Of a stretch of 64,000 nucleotides of DNA, positions 52,701-58,188 are shown in pieces (within the stretch, counting starts at the first letter, position 1; the number at the start of each line of letters is the position of its first letter). A program made the position numbers and the translations under genes. The DNA is taken from positions 960,001 to 1,024,000 of the forward strand of contig CAWDXE010000001.1 in assembly GCA_963806185.1 (NCBI GenBank). The letters are read 5' to 3'. Below the pieces are notes generated by a model that saw nothing but the letters and a program-made list of their open reading frames with translations, was not told the origin of the DNA and searched no databases. Origin of the DNA: an uncultured candidate division Zixibacteria bacterium (GTDB taxonomy: Bacteria > Zixibacteria > MSB-5A5 > GN15 > FEB-12).

Positions 52701-53045
52701 ATCGGCGATGCCTGTGATTTTGACGGCGACGCCGACGGAATTAATGACAACGTCGACAACTGCCCGTTCGTCTATAACCCGGGTCAGGAGGACACTGATA
52801 ACGACGGCATCGGCGACGTTTGTTGCTGCGTGGCCGCGACCGGCAACATCGATTGTAGTGCCGGCGATGGTGTCGATATTGGTGACCTGACCGTGCTCAT
52901 CGATAACCTCTTCATTACGTTTGCACCGCTGTGCTGTCCCGGTGAAGGGAATGTTGACGCCACGGGGGGGACCGATATTAGCGATCTGACCGTCCTGATC
53001 GACAACCTGTTTATCACCTTTGGCACGCTGCCGAATTGCCAGTAG
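49740..53045 (+). CDS. Secreted M12B/reprolysin-like zinc metalloprotease with Ca-binding Cys repeats, beta-propeller, TSP type 3 repeats and dockerin-like C-terminus
   Basis: [11 protein letters not shown] and Met-turn TIMSY; DCNxN repeats; GPDG propeller; DxDxDGxGDACD repeats; GGAGG RBS before ATG 49740. Confidence 0.88.
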
Positions 53046-53068
53046 GCTGCAGGTGCCAAGACTAATGT

Positions 53069-53108
53069 AGCGGCCGTTGGAAATGCACTGTTTCCAGCGG
53101 TCGCTTTT
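53069..53108 (+). terminator. Long hairpin between convergent genes
   Basis: AGCGGCCGTTGGAAA / TTTCCAGCGGTCGCT (with G:U pairs) followed by TTT. Confidence 0.65.
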
Positions 53109-53139
53109 GCTAGTCGACCTCTGGTCACTTGGCGGACAG

Positions 53140-54537
53140 TCACTCTATGTTCATGTCCACAACTCGCGATTTGTCGAAGTCGACACATACTCCAAAGGGA
53201 ACCTTGCACTCCCAGGGCAGATTCTCACACGAGCCGTCATCTGAAGAAGCGTCGAGGAATACACAGCGACCCTCAACTTCGGTCATGACAAGCATATGAT
53301 TGAATAGTCCGGAAAGTTGAAACGGCAATTTGTCTCTGGTACTTATCAGAACCGGCCATGCTTTCACGCCGGCGCTTTCCAACATCTTTACCATTAGAAG
53401 ATTGATTTCGAACGGTACGCCGTGCCGGGTTTTGTATAGTTTCCGAAGATCGTCATGTGCCGGATGCATATTGTACCCACCACTATCTGCTGTATACTGA
53501 CTTGTGAGATAGTCACAAATCTTGACAATACGTACCATAGGCGCATCGTCAGATGACCATAGCTTGCCAAACTGCTTTCTCATGCCGATGGTAACTTTCA
53601 GATACTCATTCAGATATCCTTGAATACTCCGGCCCACGTATTGCCAGTGGGTGGAATCGTACACCCCGCGAATAATCCTGTTTTCCCCTCGATCGACGGA
53701 TGAGAATCTGTTGAAATGCAGGCCGCTGCGATTCAGTTCCGAGAAACCCTGGGCACTGCTGTCCGACGGAAATGCTCTGATATTCTCCATGTGCCAGGTG
53801 TGCTTCTTGTAGGCGGTAGCTGTCAACACCTTGACTCGTTCGACCGCCGGATCGGCTCTTTCGGCCGGCATATTTAGGGGGACAAACAGGTAATCGCAAT
53901 CTGCGCCAATCTTGGCCGTAAACTCGGAAGTGAGGCAGTATATAGGATTATCAAAATGCCAGGATGGCAGGTTCCGCATGACAATTCCTTCACCAAAATG
54001 ATCAATATCTCCCTCAATCCTCGTCTTGAACTTGTACGCGTCGTAGTAGTGCTCCTGTCCAAACAGGTAGAACGCCTCGGGCCCAAGTTTGTCAAAACCT
54101 GAGTAGTATTCGATCGTATATCGATACTCTATGATATCACCGGGCTGCAAATCAGAAAACTGCAACACACAGTATCGCCAAGGTCCCTTTTCTACTGTCT
54201 GAGAATGGTCTTTGGCAGAGAGCTTAGAGGTGATGCCCTGCCTGTGAAGCCTCATCTCAATGTCAGTCAGATGGTCATAGTGAAGATATTCAATAGTCGC
54301 CTCACCGGCTTGCACCGCGCCCGCCGGCGTGAATACTTTTAAACGGGTATGCCGGTCGAAAGTCACACCGCTCTGTTCGGTTGTGACGAGACCGCGATCA
54401 AAAAGAATTACAGCATCCGGATAGTCCGCGGTCGGTTGAAGACGCTCCTCATTCTCACTGAACTGCTCCCAGTCTTGCGCATACACGGATACGGCAAAGA
54501 GAAGCGAAAAGATAGCGAAACACCTGAGTAGATTCAT
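53140..54537 (-). CDS. Secreted DUF3857/transglutaminase-like domain protein
   Basis: Signal peptide; DAVILFD, LQPGDIIEYRY and FNHML...FLDAS motifs; GGGAGG RBS. Confidence 0.75.
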   Translation of the reverse strand: MNLLRCFAIFSLLFAVSVYAQDWEQFSENEERLQPTADYPDAVILFDRGLVTTEQSGVTFDRHTRLKVFTPAGAVQAGEATIEYLHYDHLTDIEMRLHRQGITSKLSAKDHSQTVEKGPWRYCVLQFSDLQPGDIIEYRYTIEYYSGFDKLGPEAFYLFGQEHYYDAYKFKTRIEGDIDHFGEGIVMRNLPSWHFDNPIYCLTSEFTAKIGADCDYLFVPLNMPAERADPAVERVKVLTATAYKKHTWHMENIRAFPSDSSAQGFSELNRSGLHFNRFSSVDRGENRIIRGVYDSTHWQYVGRSIQGYLNEYLKVTIGMRKQFGKLWSSDDAPMVRIVKICDYLTSQYTADSGGYNMHPAHDDLRKLYKTRHGVPFEINLLMVKMLESAGVKAWPVLISTRDKLPFQLSGLFNHMLVMTEVEGRCVFLDASSDDGSCENLPWECKVPFGVCVDFDKSRVVDMNIE

Positions 54538-54678
54538 GCGATCCTCCCACCATCACTCAAATAGTCTCCAGGCCGGACAAATCGACAACTATTACTCGGC
54601 CAAGCCGGCTTGGGCAAAATGGCAATCAATGAAAGCTGGCTGGATCACGGCGCCGACCGGCGGCAGGAAACGGTAGAT

Positions 54679-54764
54679 TTGAGTTGGCGGAGGACTGCCG
54701 GACACCATCTACTCTCCGTGAGCACTCGGGTGAGTGGCTACCAGTTTATGCCTTTTCACTCAAC
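54679..54764 (-). ncRNA. Candidate structured small RNA of unknown family
   Basis: TTGACA-17-TAATTT promoter (54798-54770) with no ORF at the start site; self-complementary ends and internal stems. Confidence 0.35.
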
Positions 54765-54913
54765 AGGCGAAATTAAGATCCTAATAATGGTGTGTCAAGT
54801 CGAGAATTGCTCGCAGCCGAATTTGTGAGGCCGAAATCGGTGGGAACAAAGGTCATCTTTCGCGGAGACGAAATTCAGAGGAACTGCCCGCCTGCGGGTG
54901 TTGTTTCCCCTGC

Positions 54914-55117
54914 ATGCGTTTAGTTCGGTCAATCTTTGACAATCGATTCACCCGCTTGGGGCTGTTTGTTCTGGCCGGCGGCCTGCTGGGTGTTGCCATC
55001 TCGGTCGCTTATTCGTATTTTGGTTCCACCTGACAGATCATGTGTAATCCATACCTGGCCGGGTCGCTGGGTGCCGGAGTCGGACTTATGCTGTCGCTGG
55101 ATAAGGCGAAAAACTAG
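54914..55117 (+). CDS. Candidate selenoprotein: 67-aa two-TM membrane protein with UxxxC motif (UGA at 55031-55033)
   Basis: MRLVRSIFDNRFTRLGLFVLAGGLLGVAISVAYSYFGST-U-QIMCNPYLAGSLGAGVGLMLSLDKAKN; readthrough ends 1 nt before the next ATG; SECIS-like hairpin at 55053-55072. Confidence 0.7.
55053..55072 (+). promoter_or_regulatory. Candidate SECIS element 1
   Basis: ACCUGGC-CGGGUC-GCUGGGU; 7-bp stem, loop starting 26 nt after UGA. Confidence 0.6.
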
Positions 55118-55118
55118 A

Positions 55119-55334
55119 ATGCCGATTTTTGAGTATCAATGCCGCGATTGCGGCCGCAAATTCGAAGAGCTGGTGGGCGCAGCCGACGAAGCGATGAGCT
55201 GTCCCTCGTGCCAGTCGCAAAATGTCTTGAAACTGCTGTCGGTCTTCGCCGCCTCCGTGCCGTCCGGTGGCAGTGCTCCGGCGACTGCTTGCGGACGCCC
55301 CGGCTGTGGCGCCGGATTCAGTTGAGCCAATTGA
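55119..55334 (+). CDS. FmdB-family zinc-ribbon protein, candidate C-terminal selenocysteine (...CGRPGCGAGFS-U-AN)
   Basis: MPIFEYQCRDC...CPSC motif; UGA at 55323-55325 followed by a GGUC hairpin; ends at 55325 if UGA is a stop. Confidence 0.85.
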
Positions 55335-55339
55335 AGTGC

Positions 55340-55357
55340 GGCTCGCGGTCGCGGGCC
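55340..55357 (+). promoter_or_regulatory. Candidate SECIS element 2
   Basis: GGCUCGC-GGUC-GCGGGCC; 7-bp stem, loop starting 21 nt after UGA. Confidence 0.62.
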
Positions 55358-55368
55358 ATCGGAGAACT

Positions 55369-55902
55369 ATGAAGAACCTCGGTCTTAGCGTTGTCGTCAC
55401 CGTCCTGTTGATTGCAGGTTGCGGCCCGGCAAAACATCTCGATGACAAACTCGACTGGCAGAAGATCGGTACTGTTGCGGCCAATTTCCCCGCTGCCCCG
55501 CAACCCGGCTCCAAACCGATCTTTCTCTACTTCAGCCAGAATAACTGCCACTACTGTGCCGCGATGGACAGCCTTTTTGAACGGTCGGAGGTCGCCTGGT
55601 ATATCAACGAGCACTTCCTGCCGGTAAATGTAAACGTGGATACCGATCTCCCCCTGTATGTGGGCCGTGACACCCTCGACTACGCGCGTCTCTTCAAGAT
55701 CTTCAAAATGGACGGATTCCCGGCCTATTACTTTTTCGACACTACCGGTCACCTCATGGGGATGCTGGAACGCTCCATGGACCTGGTGCACCTCAAACGG
55801 AGTCTTGTTTACGTCAACGATGGTCACTTCGGCAAGCTGTCCTGGGAGGATTTTTTGAAGTTACCCGACGTACCAAAGGACACCGTTCGGGGAATCTTCT
55901 AG
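55369..55902 (+). CDS. Thioredoxin-fold lipoprotein (CHYC; SoxW/DUF255-like)
   Basis: Lipobox IAGC; KPIFLYFSQNNCHYCAAM and cis-Pro GFP motifs; GGAG RBS. Confidence 0.85.
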   Translation: MKNLGLSVVVTVLLIAGCGPAKHLDDKLDWQKIGTVAANFPAAPQPGSKPIFLYFSQNNCHYCAAMDSLFERSEVAWYINEHFLPVNVNVDTDLPLYVGRDTLDYARLFKIFKMDGFPAYYFFDTTGHLMGMLERSMDLVHLKRSLVYVNDGHFGKLSWEDFLKLPDVPKDTVRGIF

Positions 55903-56666
55903 CCGCGCTTTTGTGCCACCACGCAGATTCGTCCGGCATCCGCCGGCGCCTTTCCAAAGGTCCTGCAGTCGTAGACGCCGCGAATGACGAATCCGGCCCG
56001 GCGCACGAGCCGTTGTATCTCTGCTGGAGTATACCCGCGCTCGCAATGGGTTTCATCAAAGCGCTTCCAGTACTTCCCTTGCCGCACAAAAAACGCCGCG
56101 CGCAGTATGCCCAGCTTCCGCTTCGCGTCAAACTCCGCTCGCCACGCCCAGGCCAGATCATCAGTCGCCCCCGTCGAATTCTGCCACCTTCCAAGCCCGG
56201 CCAGCGTGTTCATGTCGAATATCAGCCACCCGCCGGGTACGGTGCGTGTATGCGCAGCGCGAAACGTTGCCAACAACTCCCGCTCTGTCAGGAGGTAGTT
56301 CAGGGCGTCGTAATAGCTGGTGACCAGGTCAAACCCCGTACCGATCGCTCTATCCGGTAGCTCCAGCTTAGGCAGGGTCGATCGGTAGAACCGTGCGTCG
56401 AAGCGGTGGCATTTCTCTCGGGCCACCTTCAGCATGGCCGCCGATTGATCAACTCCGACAACGCTATACCCATGCTCGGCAAACAGCTTTGCCGCCGTTC
56501 CGGTGCCGCAACACAGGTCGAGCACTCGACGAGGTCGAATCTTGTGGCGCCGCATAAGTTCCAGTGAATAGGCCACCATCTTCGTAGAAAATCGGTCCAT
56601 ACCGATCTGGTCATACACATCGGCGAACCGGCCGTAGACGCCGCGCGACCCGGTTTTAGTTGACAC
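55899..56666 (-). CDS. Class I SAM-dependent methyltransferase
   Basis: VLDLCCGTG and DALNY motifs; GGAGG RBS before GTG 56666. Confidence 0.9.
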   Translation of the reverse strand: MSTKTGSRGVYGRFADVYDQIGMDRFSTKMVAYSLELMRRHKIRPRRVLDLCCGTGTAAKLFAEHGYSVVGVDQSAAMLKVAREKCHRFDARFYRSTLPKLELPDRAIGTGFDLVTSYYDALNYLLTERELLATFRAAHTRTVPGGWLIFDMNTLAGLGRWQNSTGATDDLAWAWRAEFDAKRKLGILRAAFFVRQGKYWKRFDETHCERGYTPAEIQRLVRRAGFVIRGVYDCRTFGKAPADAGRICVVAQKRG

Positions 56667-56775
56667 TTTTTTTCCTCCAAATTTCTTACCAGCACGTATA
56701 CTCGGTTGCGACGGAAGCGGCAAGCAGAACTTTCACGTCTGGGCCGCAGCTCCGACGCAGAGAAAGGAACCCCTG

Positions 56776-57204
56776 ATGACGACGATGTTCTGGATATGGA
56801 TGGCGGCGGCGCTCATCTTTCTGATTATCGAGTTGACCACACCGACCCTGATCTTTCTGTCCTTCGTGGTCGCAGCAGCAGCAGCCGGTATTTATTCATA
56901 CTTTGAGCCGACGGAATACTATTGGCAACTGGGTATCTTCGCCGCACTGTCGCTAATACTGATTCCCACTACCCGCCGGTTTGCCAAGCGGATTACGAAG
57001 GAAGCCCCCGAGCATGCCAATGTCGATCGCATGTTGGGCGGCATTGCCATCGTCACCAAGGATATCGACCCCGATGTGGGCGGCCAGGTGAAGTACGAGG
57101 GCGAATTGTGGGTGGCCAAAGCCGACGAGCCGATCGCGGCCAACAACAAAGTCAAAATCATCTCGGTGGCCGGCACACGCGTGCACGTCCAGAAAGTGAG
57201 CTAA
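56776..57204 (+). CDS. NfeD family membrane protein
   Basis: Hydrophobic N-terminus and GQVKYEGELWVA OB-fold; adjacent to the SPFH gene. Confidence 0.9.
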   Translation: MTTMFWIWMAAALIFLIIELTTPTLIFLSFVVAAAAAGIYSYFEPTEYYWQLGIFAALSLILIPTTRRFAKRITKEAPEHANVDRMLGGIAIVTKDIDPDVGGQVKYEGELWVAKADEPIAANNKVKIISVAGTRVHVQKVS

Positions 57205-57207
57205 GTC

Positions 57208-58188
57208 GTGGAATCGTCACTGCATCCGGTTGTCATTTTTCTCCTCGTCCTGGTTGTCTTTGCATTCATTTATGTGCTTGCGGCGATACGTACCATCCGC
57301 CCCTTTGAAAAAGGACTGATTGAACGTCTCGGTCGCTTTCAGCGCGTCATCAATCCCGGCCTGAATTTGATTGTGCCGTTTTTCGACACCCTGATCAAAG
57401 TCGATATGCGCGAGGTAGTCATCGAAGTCCCGGCCCAGCTGGTGATCACCAAAGACAACGTCAATGTCGAGGTTGACGCTGTCATCTACTGTCAGGTGAC
57501 TGACCCCTTCCGCTCCCGCTACGAAATCACCAATTACATCATGGCGGCCACCAAACTGGCGCAAACCAACCTCCGTAACGTGATCGGCGAGCTCGACCTG
57601 GACCAGTGCCTGTCGTCACGCGAGCGGATCAACTCCCAATTGCGCGATGTCATGGATCAGGCGACCGACAAGTGGGGCGTAAAGGTCAATCGTATTGAAC
57701 TCCAGCGCATCGATCCGCCGGCCGACATCACGCAGGCGATGAGCCGCCAAATGAAGGCCGAACGTGACAAGCGCGCCACCATTCTCGACGCGGAAGCGAT
57801 CCGGCAGTCGGAAATCACGAAGGCGGAAGGCTCCAAGCTGTCACAGATTCTCGAAGCCGAAGGGTACTCACAATCGATACGGCTGAAAGCGGATGCGGAG
57901 AAGTATCGTCAAATCGCCGTGGCCGAGGGTGAAGCTCAGGCCACTATCAACGTCTTCAAGGCGATTCACGAGGGCCAGCCCGACGAACGACTGATCACAC
58001 TCAAATATCTGGAGATGCTGCCCAAACTGGCTGAGAACGAAGCCAACAAGATCTTCATGCCGTACGAAGCGACGGGAATCATTGCGAGCCTTGCGGCCAT
58101 GGTTGACGGTGTGCGTCTGAACAACGCCCCGAAGGCGAAAACTCCGGTGGCGGTCACCGCCACGCCCCCACCGATGAAGCAGGGGTAG
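57208..58188 (+). CDS. SPFH/Band 7 (stomatin/QmcA-like) protein
   Basis: ERLGRF, ITKDNV and QMKAERDKRA motifs. Confidence 0.94.
   Translation: MESSLHPVVIFLLVLVVFAFIYVLAAIRTIRPFEKGLIERLGRFQRVINPGLNLIVPFFDTLIKVDMREVVIEVPAQLVITKDNVNVEVDAVIYCQVTDPFRSRYEITNYIMAATKLAQTNLRNVIGELDLDQCLSSRERINSQLRDVMDQATDKWGVKVNRIELQRIDPPADITQAMSRQMKAERDKRATILDAEAIRQSEITKAEGSKLSQILEAEGYSQSIRLKADAEKYRQIAVAEGEAQATINVFKAIHEGQPDERLITLKYLEMLPKLAENEANKIFMPYEATGIIASLAAMVDGVRLNNAPKAKTPVAVTATPPPMKQG

Follow-up and report, generated by a model that had tools for sequence, protein, structure and literature searches.

Does the UGA that ends a small zinc-ribbon gene of an uncultured candidate division Zixibacteria bacterium stop translation, or is it read as selenocysteine (Sec)? 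The gene belongs to the FmdB family and lies on the + strand of a 64,000-nucleotide stretch of contig CAWDXE010000001.1 (assembly GCA_963806185.1), referred to here as the window; its open reading frame (ORF) of 68 codons runs from an ATG at 55119 to a first TGA at 55323-55325. The original prediction, made from the sequence alone, took this UGA for a candidate Sec codon served by a selenocysteine insertion sequence (SECIS) downstream of it. The anatomy that it described was borne out in full: the UGA at 55323 follows CGRPGCGAGFS and is itself followed by GCC AAU UGA and by a GC-rich hairpin, the loop of which lies at 21 nt. Judging from comparison with related genomes, this UGA is very probably recoded as Sec.

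Few small bacterial proteins without an assigned function are as common as FmdB zinc ribbons. A conserved Sec three residues from the end would point to the tail as the working part of the protein and offer a chemical handle on its function. It would also reveal a systematic annotation gap, with gene callers and RefSeq stopping at the UGA. Bacterial SECIS elements are stated, in a 2026 review, to lie within coding regions (PMC13188914); together with the glutaredoxin-like proteins known as Uxx-star, the present gene would show that bacteria naturally use an untranslated SECIS located after the stop codon.

The gene and its predicted product

The product of the 68-codon ORF reads MPIFEYQC..C..(16)..CPSC.., then a Ser/Gly/Pro/Ala-rich stretch, then ...TACGRPGCGAGFS. 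Two family profiles match it above their curated cut-offs, PF09723 with 55.9 bits (cut-off 34.4, E 4e-15, residues 1-39 covered) and TIGR02605 with 56.4 bits (cut-off 31.3), and the domain begins at the initiator Met, which places the protein in the FmdB family. Its two CxxC motifs, C8-x2-C11 and C28-x2-C31, stand about 17 residues apart, and their four cysteines are invariant in all 30 orthologue loci examined below. In an AlphaFold 2 (AF2) model, three strands span residues 3-39, with block-mean predicted local distance difference test (pLDDT) values of 74-85 over residues 1-40. The profile matches and the fold prediction show the N-terminal part to be, as modelled, an FmdB-type Cys4 zinc ribbon, for which zinc binding is predicted. 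The Ser/Gly/Pro linker that follows is predicted to be disordered. The tail carries Cys58 (55290-55292) and Cys63 (55305-55307), and with the UGA read as Sec it would run C58-x4-C63-G-A-G-F-S-U69-A-N; Cys63, Phe67 and U69 are nearly invariant in the alignment of orthologue proteins. The features of the gene, all on the + strand, are as follows.

55119-55334, +: FmdB-family zinc-ribbon gene in its predicted full reading, 71 codons (68 + Sec + Ala + Asn) plus the true stop
55119-55238, +: zinc-ribbon domain, residues 1-40, with Cys8, Cys11, Cys28 and Cys31, all TGY codons (Pfam match, AF2 model)
55239-55322, +: low-complexity Ser/Gly/Pro/Ala linker and Cys tail (G-A-G-F-S after Cys63), pLDDT about 46-52 over residues 41-71 (AF2)
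55323-55325, +: UGA predicted as selenocysteine, residue 69 (TGA in 30/30 orthologue loci)
55326-55331, +: two predicted sense codons past Sec, GCC Ala and AAT Asn (extension of 1-3 codons in orthologue loci)
55332-55334, +: predicted true stop, TGA (type of second stop varies among orthologue loci)
55340-55357, +: SECIS-like hairpin in 3' untranslated intercistronic RNA, 7-bp stem with one U-G pair and a GGUC loop

The first TGA in orthologous genes

Of 41 genomes of the order searched with the 68-residue product, 39 contained a match. We examined 30 loci, each the best place in one of 30 genomes and the window's own locus among them; in their alignment, the encoded proteins are 36-60% identical to that of the window. 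In all 30 loci the first stop is a TGA, and the residues before it read G-F-[ST] or something close to that. The codon is not reassigned in the genome of the window, where it terminates 53% of long ORFs (2016/3818).

What follows the TGA is equally constrained. One sense codon comes next in 11 loci, two in 15 and three in 4, and a second stop is therefore found one to three codons on in every locus (TAA 18, TGA 9, TAG 3), as compared with 7.8% (157/2016) of the TGA-ended long ORFs that served as background. The codon directly past the TGA specifies Gly in 16 loci and Ala in 11, with all four GGN and all four GCN codons in use; the other three loci have AGT, AAC and AAC. G[GC]N thus occupies this position in 27 of the 30 loci against 13.9% of the same background ORFs, only 1.5% of which combine both features. 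Within one family (f4), the ending U-A-S-C-stop is kept in four genomes via synonymous changes (TCA/TCC, TGT/TGC), while the terminal stop alternates between TAA and TGA. Four further good matches lie outside the 30 loci. Three of them have the TGA form with a hairpin and would end K-S-F-G-U-A-S-C, G-F-R-U-G and R-F-T-U-G; the fourth, an additional copy in one of the genomes, has a different, Cys-rich end.

The signature stands beyond chance by this comparison, not from the window sequence alone. Taken across the aligned sequences, the pattern after the TGA is that of a translated codon and not of a terminator. The original prediction had looked to homologues for Cys versus TGA at this codon, and had reckoned with TAA or TAG as evidence for a plain stop. 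Neither TAA nor TAG replaces the TGA in the 30 loci or in the three further matches, and the Sec reading is supported to that extent; a Cys at the aligned position did not appear in the close homologues.

A covarying hairpin beyond the second stop

In the window, the hairpin consists of GGCTCGC (55340-55346), the loop GGTC (55347-55350) and GCGGGCC (55351-55357). It begins five bases after the second TGA, and its loop starts 21 nt past the first. The original observation that it lacks a U-tract and is not an obvious terminator proved correct, in that no T-run lies 3' of the hairpin and a terminator scan raised no flag at 55340-55357.

In 29 of the 30 orthologue loci, a stem of at least 5 bp forms a hairpin whose loop starts 17-24 nt past the first TGA, at a distance that does not depend on how many codons the extension has. 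When stops of long ORFs throughout the genome were searched in the same way, such a hairpin occurred in 12-13% of cases (239/2016 for TGA, 114/880 for TAA, 117/922 for TAG). The loop is exactly GGTC in 16 loci and GGT, GTT, GTG, GTC, CGTGA, CGTGC or CGGGT in 11 others, and GU lies in the loop or across its closing base in 27 of the 30. Among long-ORF stops, a GGTC loop follows 3 of the 2016 TGA, no TAA and no TAG codons; hairpins with this loop are common in the genome (357 in a simple scan) and are informative only in their ORF context.

The stems, in contrast, are diverse in sequence (CTCGC, CTCAC, CGGCA, CCTGC, GTCAC, TCCGC, CCTGT, GGGCC and others), and they were tested for covariation. 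A MAFFT alignment of the 54-nt regions left the hairpins out of register, and the regions were re-cut around each hairpin. The resulting gap-poor alignment has a 6-pair helix in which all six pairs vary on both sides and 71% of cells are paired, against 47% in shuffles. Its covariation score of 0.578 compares with 0.177 in shuffles, none of 500 of which scored as high, and with 0.12-0.34 (maximum 0.342) when the partners were slid. These covariation figures are lower bounds because misregister persists in the rows whose loops have 3 or 5 nt, while locating the hairpins separately in each sequence favours pairing. The hairpin is kept with compensatory stem changes, and the covariation test that the original prediction proposed thus came out in favour of Sec. 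It is kept despite a variable downstream gene, a thioredoxin-like lipoprotein gene in only 11 of the 30 loci.

Selenocysteine machinery and confident Sec sites in the same genome

The assembly comprises 8 contigs and 3.65 Mb at 56% GC and is 82% complete. It holds selA, selB, selC and selD, all over curated cut-offs: selB (329.7 bits, cut-off 242) and selA (498 bits, cut-off 268) adjoin on contig 4, tRNA-SeC was found, and selD carries one in-frame TGA. A search for GGTC-loop hairpins 15-25 nt past a TGA returned two other genes in a sensible ORF context.

The first of these is a Uxx-star glutaredoxin-like gene (G000:C4:166534-166755; L043:235-456, +) that encodes 73 residues with CPYC and ends G-F-G-G-G-U-G-I-stop; it scores 110 bits with NF041212 (cut-off 66) and 74.7 with NF041114 (cut-off 72). 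Its hairpin, CGGCGAC/GGTC/GTCGCCG, has 7 bp and lies beyond the stop, 21 nt past the UGA. It agrees in loop, length of stem and spacing, and hence in geometry, with the hairpin of the zinc-ribbon gene. This Uxx-star gene stands directly 3' of a NuoM-like open frame. The second is a gene with a thioredoxin fold and tetratricopeptide repeats on the minus strand of G000:C3 (TGA 277892, L044), which has thioredoxin and DsbD matches, a UGA at the first Cys of W-U-S-W-C, and an 8-bp GGUC hairpin 23 nt past the UGA. The expected likeness of the window hairpin to those of confident Sec genes was therefore found in the Uxx-star and thioredoxin-like UxxC genes (GGUC, 21 and 23 nt); the hairpin of selD has the loop AGUUC at 19 nt past its UGA.

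Predicted Sec-tailed FmdB genes in other phyla

A profile was built from the 30 proteins with U read as C. It found 19071 representatives at E <= 0.001, of which the best 150 were examined, 145 of them small proteins. Among these 145, 50 end in [FYV][STGR] after a C-G-S-G-like motif, that is, at the residue before the predicted Sec, and 38 have a Cys within the last four residues, for example G-M-C-G-L-N and G-C-G-C-H.

Searching species genomes at the DNA level yielded 55 loci in other phyla. Twelve of them, in Desulfobacterota, Bryobacterales and Chloroflexia, show a TGA, up to three codons, a stop and a hairpin: those of a Bryobacterales metagenome-assembled genome (MAG), a Chloroflexia MAG, four Desulfosarcina, Desulfogranum mediterraneum DSM 13871, Desulfotignum, Pelovirga, a Desulfobacteraceae MAG, a Desulfuromonadales MAG and a Desulfobacterales MAG. 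In D. mediterraneum DSM 13871 the predicted ending is G-F-S-U-A-stop. The corresponding RefSeq record (WP_028583563.1, 'FmdB family zinc ribbon protein') has 71 residues and stops at G-F-S, a truncation at the UGA, and the RefSeq product of Desulfuromonas sp. KJ2020 (WP_253961165.1) is likewise truncated. With at least one cultured and non-pathogenic carrier, D. mediterraneum, the Sec prediction is directly testable. More speculatively, Sec-tailed FmdB proteins would form a large family over several phyla that annotation has wholly missed.

The TGA form also tracks selA, which exceeds its cut-off in 11 of the 12 TGA-form genomes and in 10 of 24 with other FmdB endings (Fisher P = 0.005, with kin not independent). 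The remaining 19 of the 55 loci (L049, L053, L055, L057, L059, L061, L067, L069, L072, L081, L085, L087, L089, L092-L095, L097 and L099) were left out of this comparison, their endings being ambiguous or cut off or their homology doubtful.

Several of these loci show further forms. The FmdB homologues of the Desulfosarcina MAGs (L058, L068, L070, L075) end A-G-G-U-G-I-stop or U-R-R-stop, nearly the ending of the Uxx-star proteins, as if Sec tail and hairpin were a portable module. Two Candidatus Poribacteria MAGs (L067, L087) have an FmdB TGA followed by a longer conserved U-A-[LI]-P-N-S-G-S, which may be another Sec form. In the Bryobacterales MAG (L047), a Cys-tailed FmdB gene (M-P-C-G-N-A-stop) lies upstream of the TGA-form copy (G-M-A-U-R-P-R-stop), a possible pair of Cys and Sec paralogues.

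Comparison with known selenoproteins

Another selenoprotein called FmdB, formylmethanofuran dehydrogenase subunit B, is unrelated (PMC4807772). The published systems that bear on the present gene are compared below.

FmdB-family selenoproteins have indeed been reported, as the original prediction said: they were predicted from two Global Ocean Sampling reads, with CxxU and 807 Cys homologues (PMC2398784), and reviews list them under TIGR02605 as U/CxxU and UxxU, without an accession (PMC9312934, PMC13188914). The form described in PMC2398784, however, has its Sec in CxxU and not in a C-terminal tail. Both are predicted bacterial selenoproteins of the same family (TIGR02605, COG2331) without an assigned function. 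In the ocean form Sec would occupy a presumed zinc-knuckle Cys position, whereas the window gene retains all four knuckle cysteines and would place Sec in the tail (C-x5-U), three residues from the end, with its SECIS beyond the stop. We found no description of a Sec-tailed FmdB protein in the literature searched, though Haft & Tolstoy 2025 or Xiao & Zhang 2025, outside that search, could mention one, and the form is not in the examined table rows of PMC13188914.

The glutaredoxin-like Uxx-star proteins (NF041212, NF041114, NF041211, NF047338) offer a similar arrangement: they are small, end Sec-Xaa-Xaa-stop after a Gly-rich run, and have a hairpin beyond the stop. They have a glutaredoxin fold with CPYC, whereas the window protein is a zinc ribbon with a predicted disordered tail, and the extension past Sec varies from one to three residues among its orthologues. 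No Uxx-star model matches the zinc-ribbon protein at E <= 0.1, in a search that readily finds the genome's true member. With its well-supported Sec reading, the window gene represents a variant of two established types, on the one hand the FmdB-family selenoproteins and on the other those selenoproteins that end Sec-Xaa-Xaa-stop and have their SECIS untranslated.

A SECIS beyond the stop has a probable precedent in E. coli, where rat thioredoxin reductase 1 (Sec498-Gly499-stop) was made with a 17-nt SECIS bearing a GGUC loop (PMC3834832). Since the Sec codon of that protein is followed by nothing more than Gly and the stop, the E. coli signal would have to lie beyond the stop. Animal thioredoxin reductases resemble the predicted window protein in that a flexible tail carries Sec by the C-terminus and close to a Cys (G-C-U-G). 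They differ in that the arrangement, which eukaryotes have naturally, was engineered in bacteria, in that the Cys is adjacent (C-U) rather than at C-x5-U, and in that the enzyme is a large flavoenzyme and the window product a 7-kDa protein. The E. coli fdhF SECIS is likewise a hairpin shortly past the UGA with G and U in its apical loop, the two bases being conserved SelB contacts (PMC8659212). The window hairpin and the 17-nt minimal element have the same GGUC loop (PMC3834832). From the UGA to the start of the stem there are 14 nt here and 11 nt in fdhF, whose element lies within the coding sequence while the present one is untranslated.

The family of dual CXXC motif small (seleno)proteins, NF041197 (CxxC_Se_CxxC; OS_HP3 or hypothetical protein DW in PMC13188914), is similar in being small, with two CxxC motifs and one Sec. 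By its name it has Sec between the two motifs, whereas that of the window protein is predicted in the tail; NF041197 did not match the zinc-ribbon gene, either in the library scan or in a search of the whole genome at E <= 10.

Proposed recoding and rival explanations

The evidence is best explained, with high probability for the account as a whole, by Sec insertion at 55323 guided by the GGUC hairpin to give a Sec-tailed product of 71 residues. SelB carrying Sec-tRNA(Sec) would bind the hairpin at 55340-55357 while the UGA at 55323 is in the ribosomal A site; Sec would be inserted, two more residues added, and the protein released at the second UGA at 55332. The second UGA would escape recoding because it is too close to the hairpin. 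With translation ending at 55332, the whole of the recoding signal would fall within the untranslated spacer that precedes the next gene.

Several observations weigh against this account. The genomes compared are related, so that the counts over the 30 loci overstate independence, and so do formal P values. selA is present in 40 of the 41 genomes of the order, which therefore provides no contrast within it, and two carriers, G003 (85% complete) and G045, have no selA over the cut-off. The hairpin of the window is unremarkable by itself: the 46-nt stretch containing it folds with -13.5 kcal/mol (z = 0.11 against shuffles), no better than shuffles, and the argument hence rests on the comparison. 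An Rfam scan of 53000-57500 gave no match at E <= 10, and the hairpin is without the bulged U of the E. coli fdhF type. Among the 30 loci, L023 has a weaker hairpin nearer the UGA (14 nt), and the loops of L021, L023 and L032, and only these, are without GU. None of the 145 small proteins among the best 150 profile matches ends in G-F-S-C, and no Cys (TGY) orthologue was found at the Sec position, the Cys-tailed relatives not being reliably alignable in the low-complexity tail.

As regards function, we infer a role for the tail itself. It could act as a swinging redox arm, in which a Sec69-Cys63 selenenylsulfide (C-x5-U) exchanges with partner thiols or selenols, as the G-C-U-G end of animal thioredoxin reductase does; this is a plausible but tentative suggestion, one that falls somewhat short of an even chance. 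Its partners in this lineage would be a co-transcribed membrane microprotein with U-x3-C, encoded directly upstream, and in some genomes a periplasmic thioredoxin-like lipoprotein. The arguments for the tail's function come from analogy and gene neighbourhood, and we hold it with modest confidence; none of the 12 TGA-form loci in other phyla, moreover, has the membrane microprotein.

The main functional rival of the redox arm accepts Sec insertion and takes the tail of a small chaperone as a ligand for a soft metal or metalloid (Hg, As, Cu, Zn or selenium). Cys58, Cys63 and Sec69 would indeed sit together on a flexible end, many FmdB relatives have Cys-rich ends such as G-C-G-C-H, and the two-helix membrane protein encoded upstream carries U-x3-C. 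We take this upstream protein to resemble small mercury transporters. Yet no metal-resistance or transporter gene occurs within about 2 kb, where genes for DUF3857, an S-adenosylmethionine (SAM) methyltransferase, NfeD and SPFH are found instead, and thiol exchange is suggested by the CxxC thioredoxin-like lipoprotein that is a neighbour in 11 of the 30 loci. According to PMC13188914, a role as metal ligand is possible for the Sec of Uxx-star proteins, SaoB and SaoC. On balance, a metal-binding tail is possible and somewhat less probable than a redox arm.

More basically, the UGA might be an ordinary stop, so that the protein ends in G-F-S and the hairpin is a conserved intercistronic RNA acting in stability, processing or control of downstream translation. 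This is where gene callers and RefSeq end the protein, and the hairpin lies 3 nt before the GGAG of the next gene, is of unremarkable single-sequence stability and is without an Rfam match. An ordinary stop, however, leaves unexplained why a codon with a usage of 53% is the first stop in 30 of 30 loci, why a second stop always follows within three codons, and why Gly and Ala codons with free third positions stand right past the supposed stop. The position of the hairpin is tied to the first TGA and not to the downstream gene, which differs among loci; the same geometry occurs in a curated selenoprotein of the same genome, and the TGA form is associated with selA in other phyla. As an intercistronic RNA the hairpin is, in addition, without a T-run and not flagged as a terminator. 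We consider termination at this UGA improbable.

Alternatively, the gene might encode a ribosomal peptide precursor whose Cys/Ser/Sec-rich tail is modified after translation, for example to azoles, as proposed for selenobacteriocins. FmdB tails are said, in the description of TIGR02605, to resemble the tails of bacteriocin precursors. The motif of the selenobacteriocin family, S-G-U-G in PMC13188914, may be set beside F-S-U-G/A here. TIGR04081, the model of SbtA-type selenobacteriocin precursors, nevertheless does not match the zinc-ribbon protein; no YcaO, radical SAM or other maturase is encoded in the five flanking ORFs scanned (about 2 kb); the neighbourhood varies while the gene stays; and, unlike a leader peptide, the structured zinc ribbon is conserved from end to end. 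A precursor is thus very improbable. Read-through without Sec, by near-cognate insertion of Trp or Cys or through a variant genetic code, would fit a post-UGA coding signature that shows continued translation and not the identity of the residue, and is the least credible alternative given that TGA ends 53% of long ORFs and is not reassigned, that the Sec system is complete, that a SelB-type hairpin stands at the right distance and that the TGA form tracks selA.

Neighbouring genes

Two neighbouring genes on the same strand bear on the functional suggestions above.

54914-55117, +: two-helix membrane microprotein gene with an in-frame TGA at 55031-55033, ending 1 nt before the zinc-ribbon ATG
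55369-55902, +: thioredoxin-like lipoprotein gene with the CxxC motif C-H-Y-C (PF13098 3.3e-9, PF03190 3.1e-8)

The microprotein has the motif Y-F-G-S-T-U-Q-I-M-C-N-P around its TGA. The TGA and the motif G-[SA]-T-U-x3-C-N-P are kept in 23 of the 30 loci, always directly upstream of the zinc-ribbon gene, and the microprotein is probably a further selenoprotein missing from annotation. No family in Pfam or NCBIfam matches it, and a word-based protein search found no relative in the protein collection. The original prediction had matched the hairpins of the two genes in loop and closing bases. That match is approximate: the loop of the microprotein gene, CGGGUC, contains GGUC and is closed by G-C pairs. 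In one locus (L027, genome G008), the microprotein frame has a TAA and a short gap at G-S-T-U-x3-C and is either broken or of a different form.

Together, the zinc ribbon and the microprotein might constitute a two-selenoprotein module, a minimal selenol/thiol relay between cytoplasm and envelope that feeds the thioredoxin-like lipoprotein encoded beside it in some genomes, an idea that we regard as speculative and rather unlikely. Were it true, a relay for reducing equivalents, or for selenium or a soft metal, made of two proteins of about 70 residues would constitute a DsbD-like system of a new type.

The thioredoxin-like lipoprotein gene is downstream in 11 of the 30 loci, the window's own included. 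Its ribosome-binding site, GGAG, lies at 55361-55364, and the hairpin ends 3 nt before it. The hairpin, or SelB bound to it, could affect translation of this gene. The neighbourhood as a whole varies among loci while the zinc-ribbon gene stays; other neighbours are DUF3857, NfeD and SPFH genes. A convergent class I SAM methyltransferase gene (55902-56723, -) is also present, and a gene of this kind stands beside the zinc-ribbon gene in 12 of the 30 loci.

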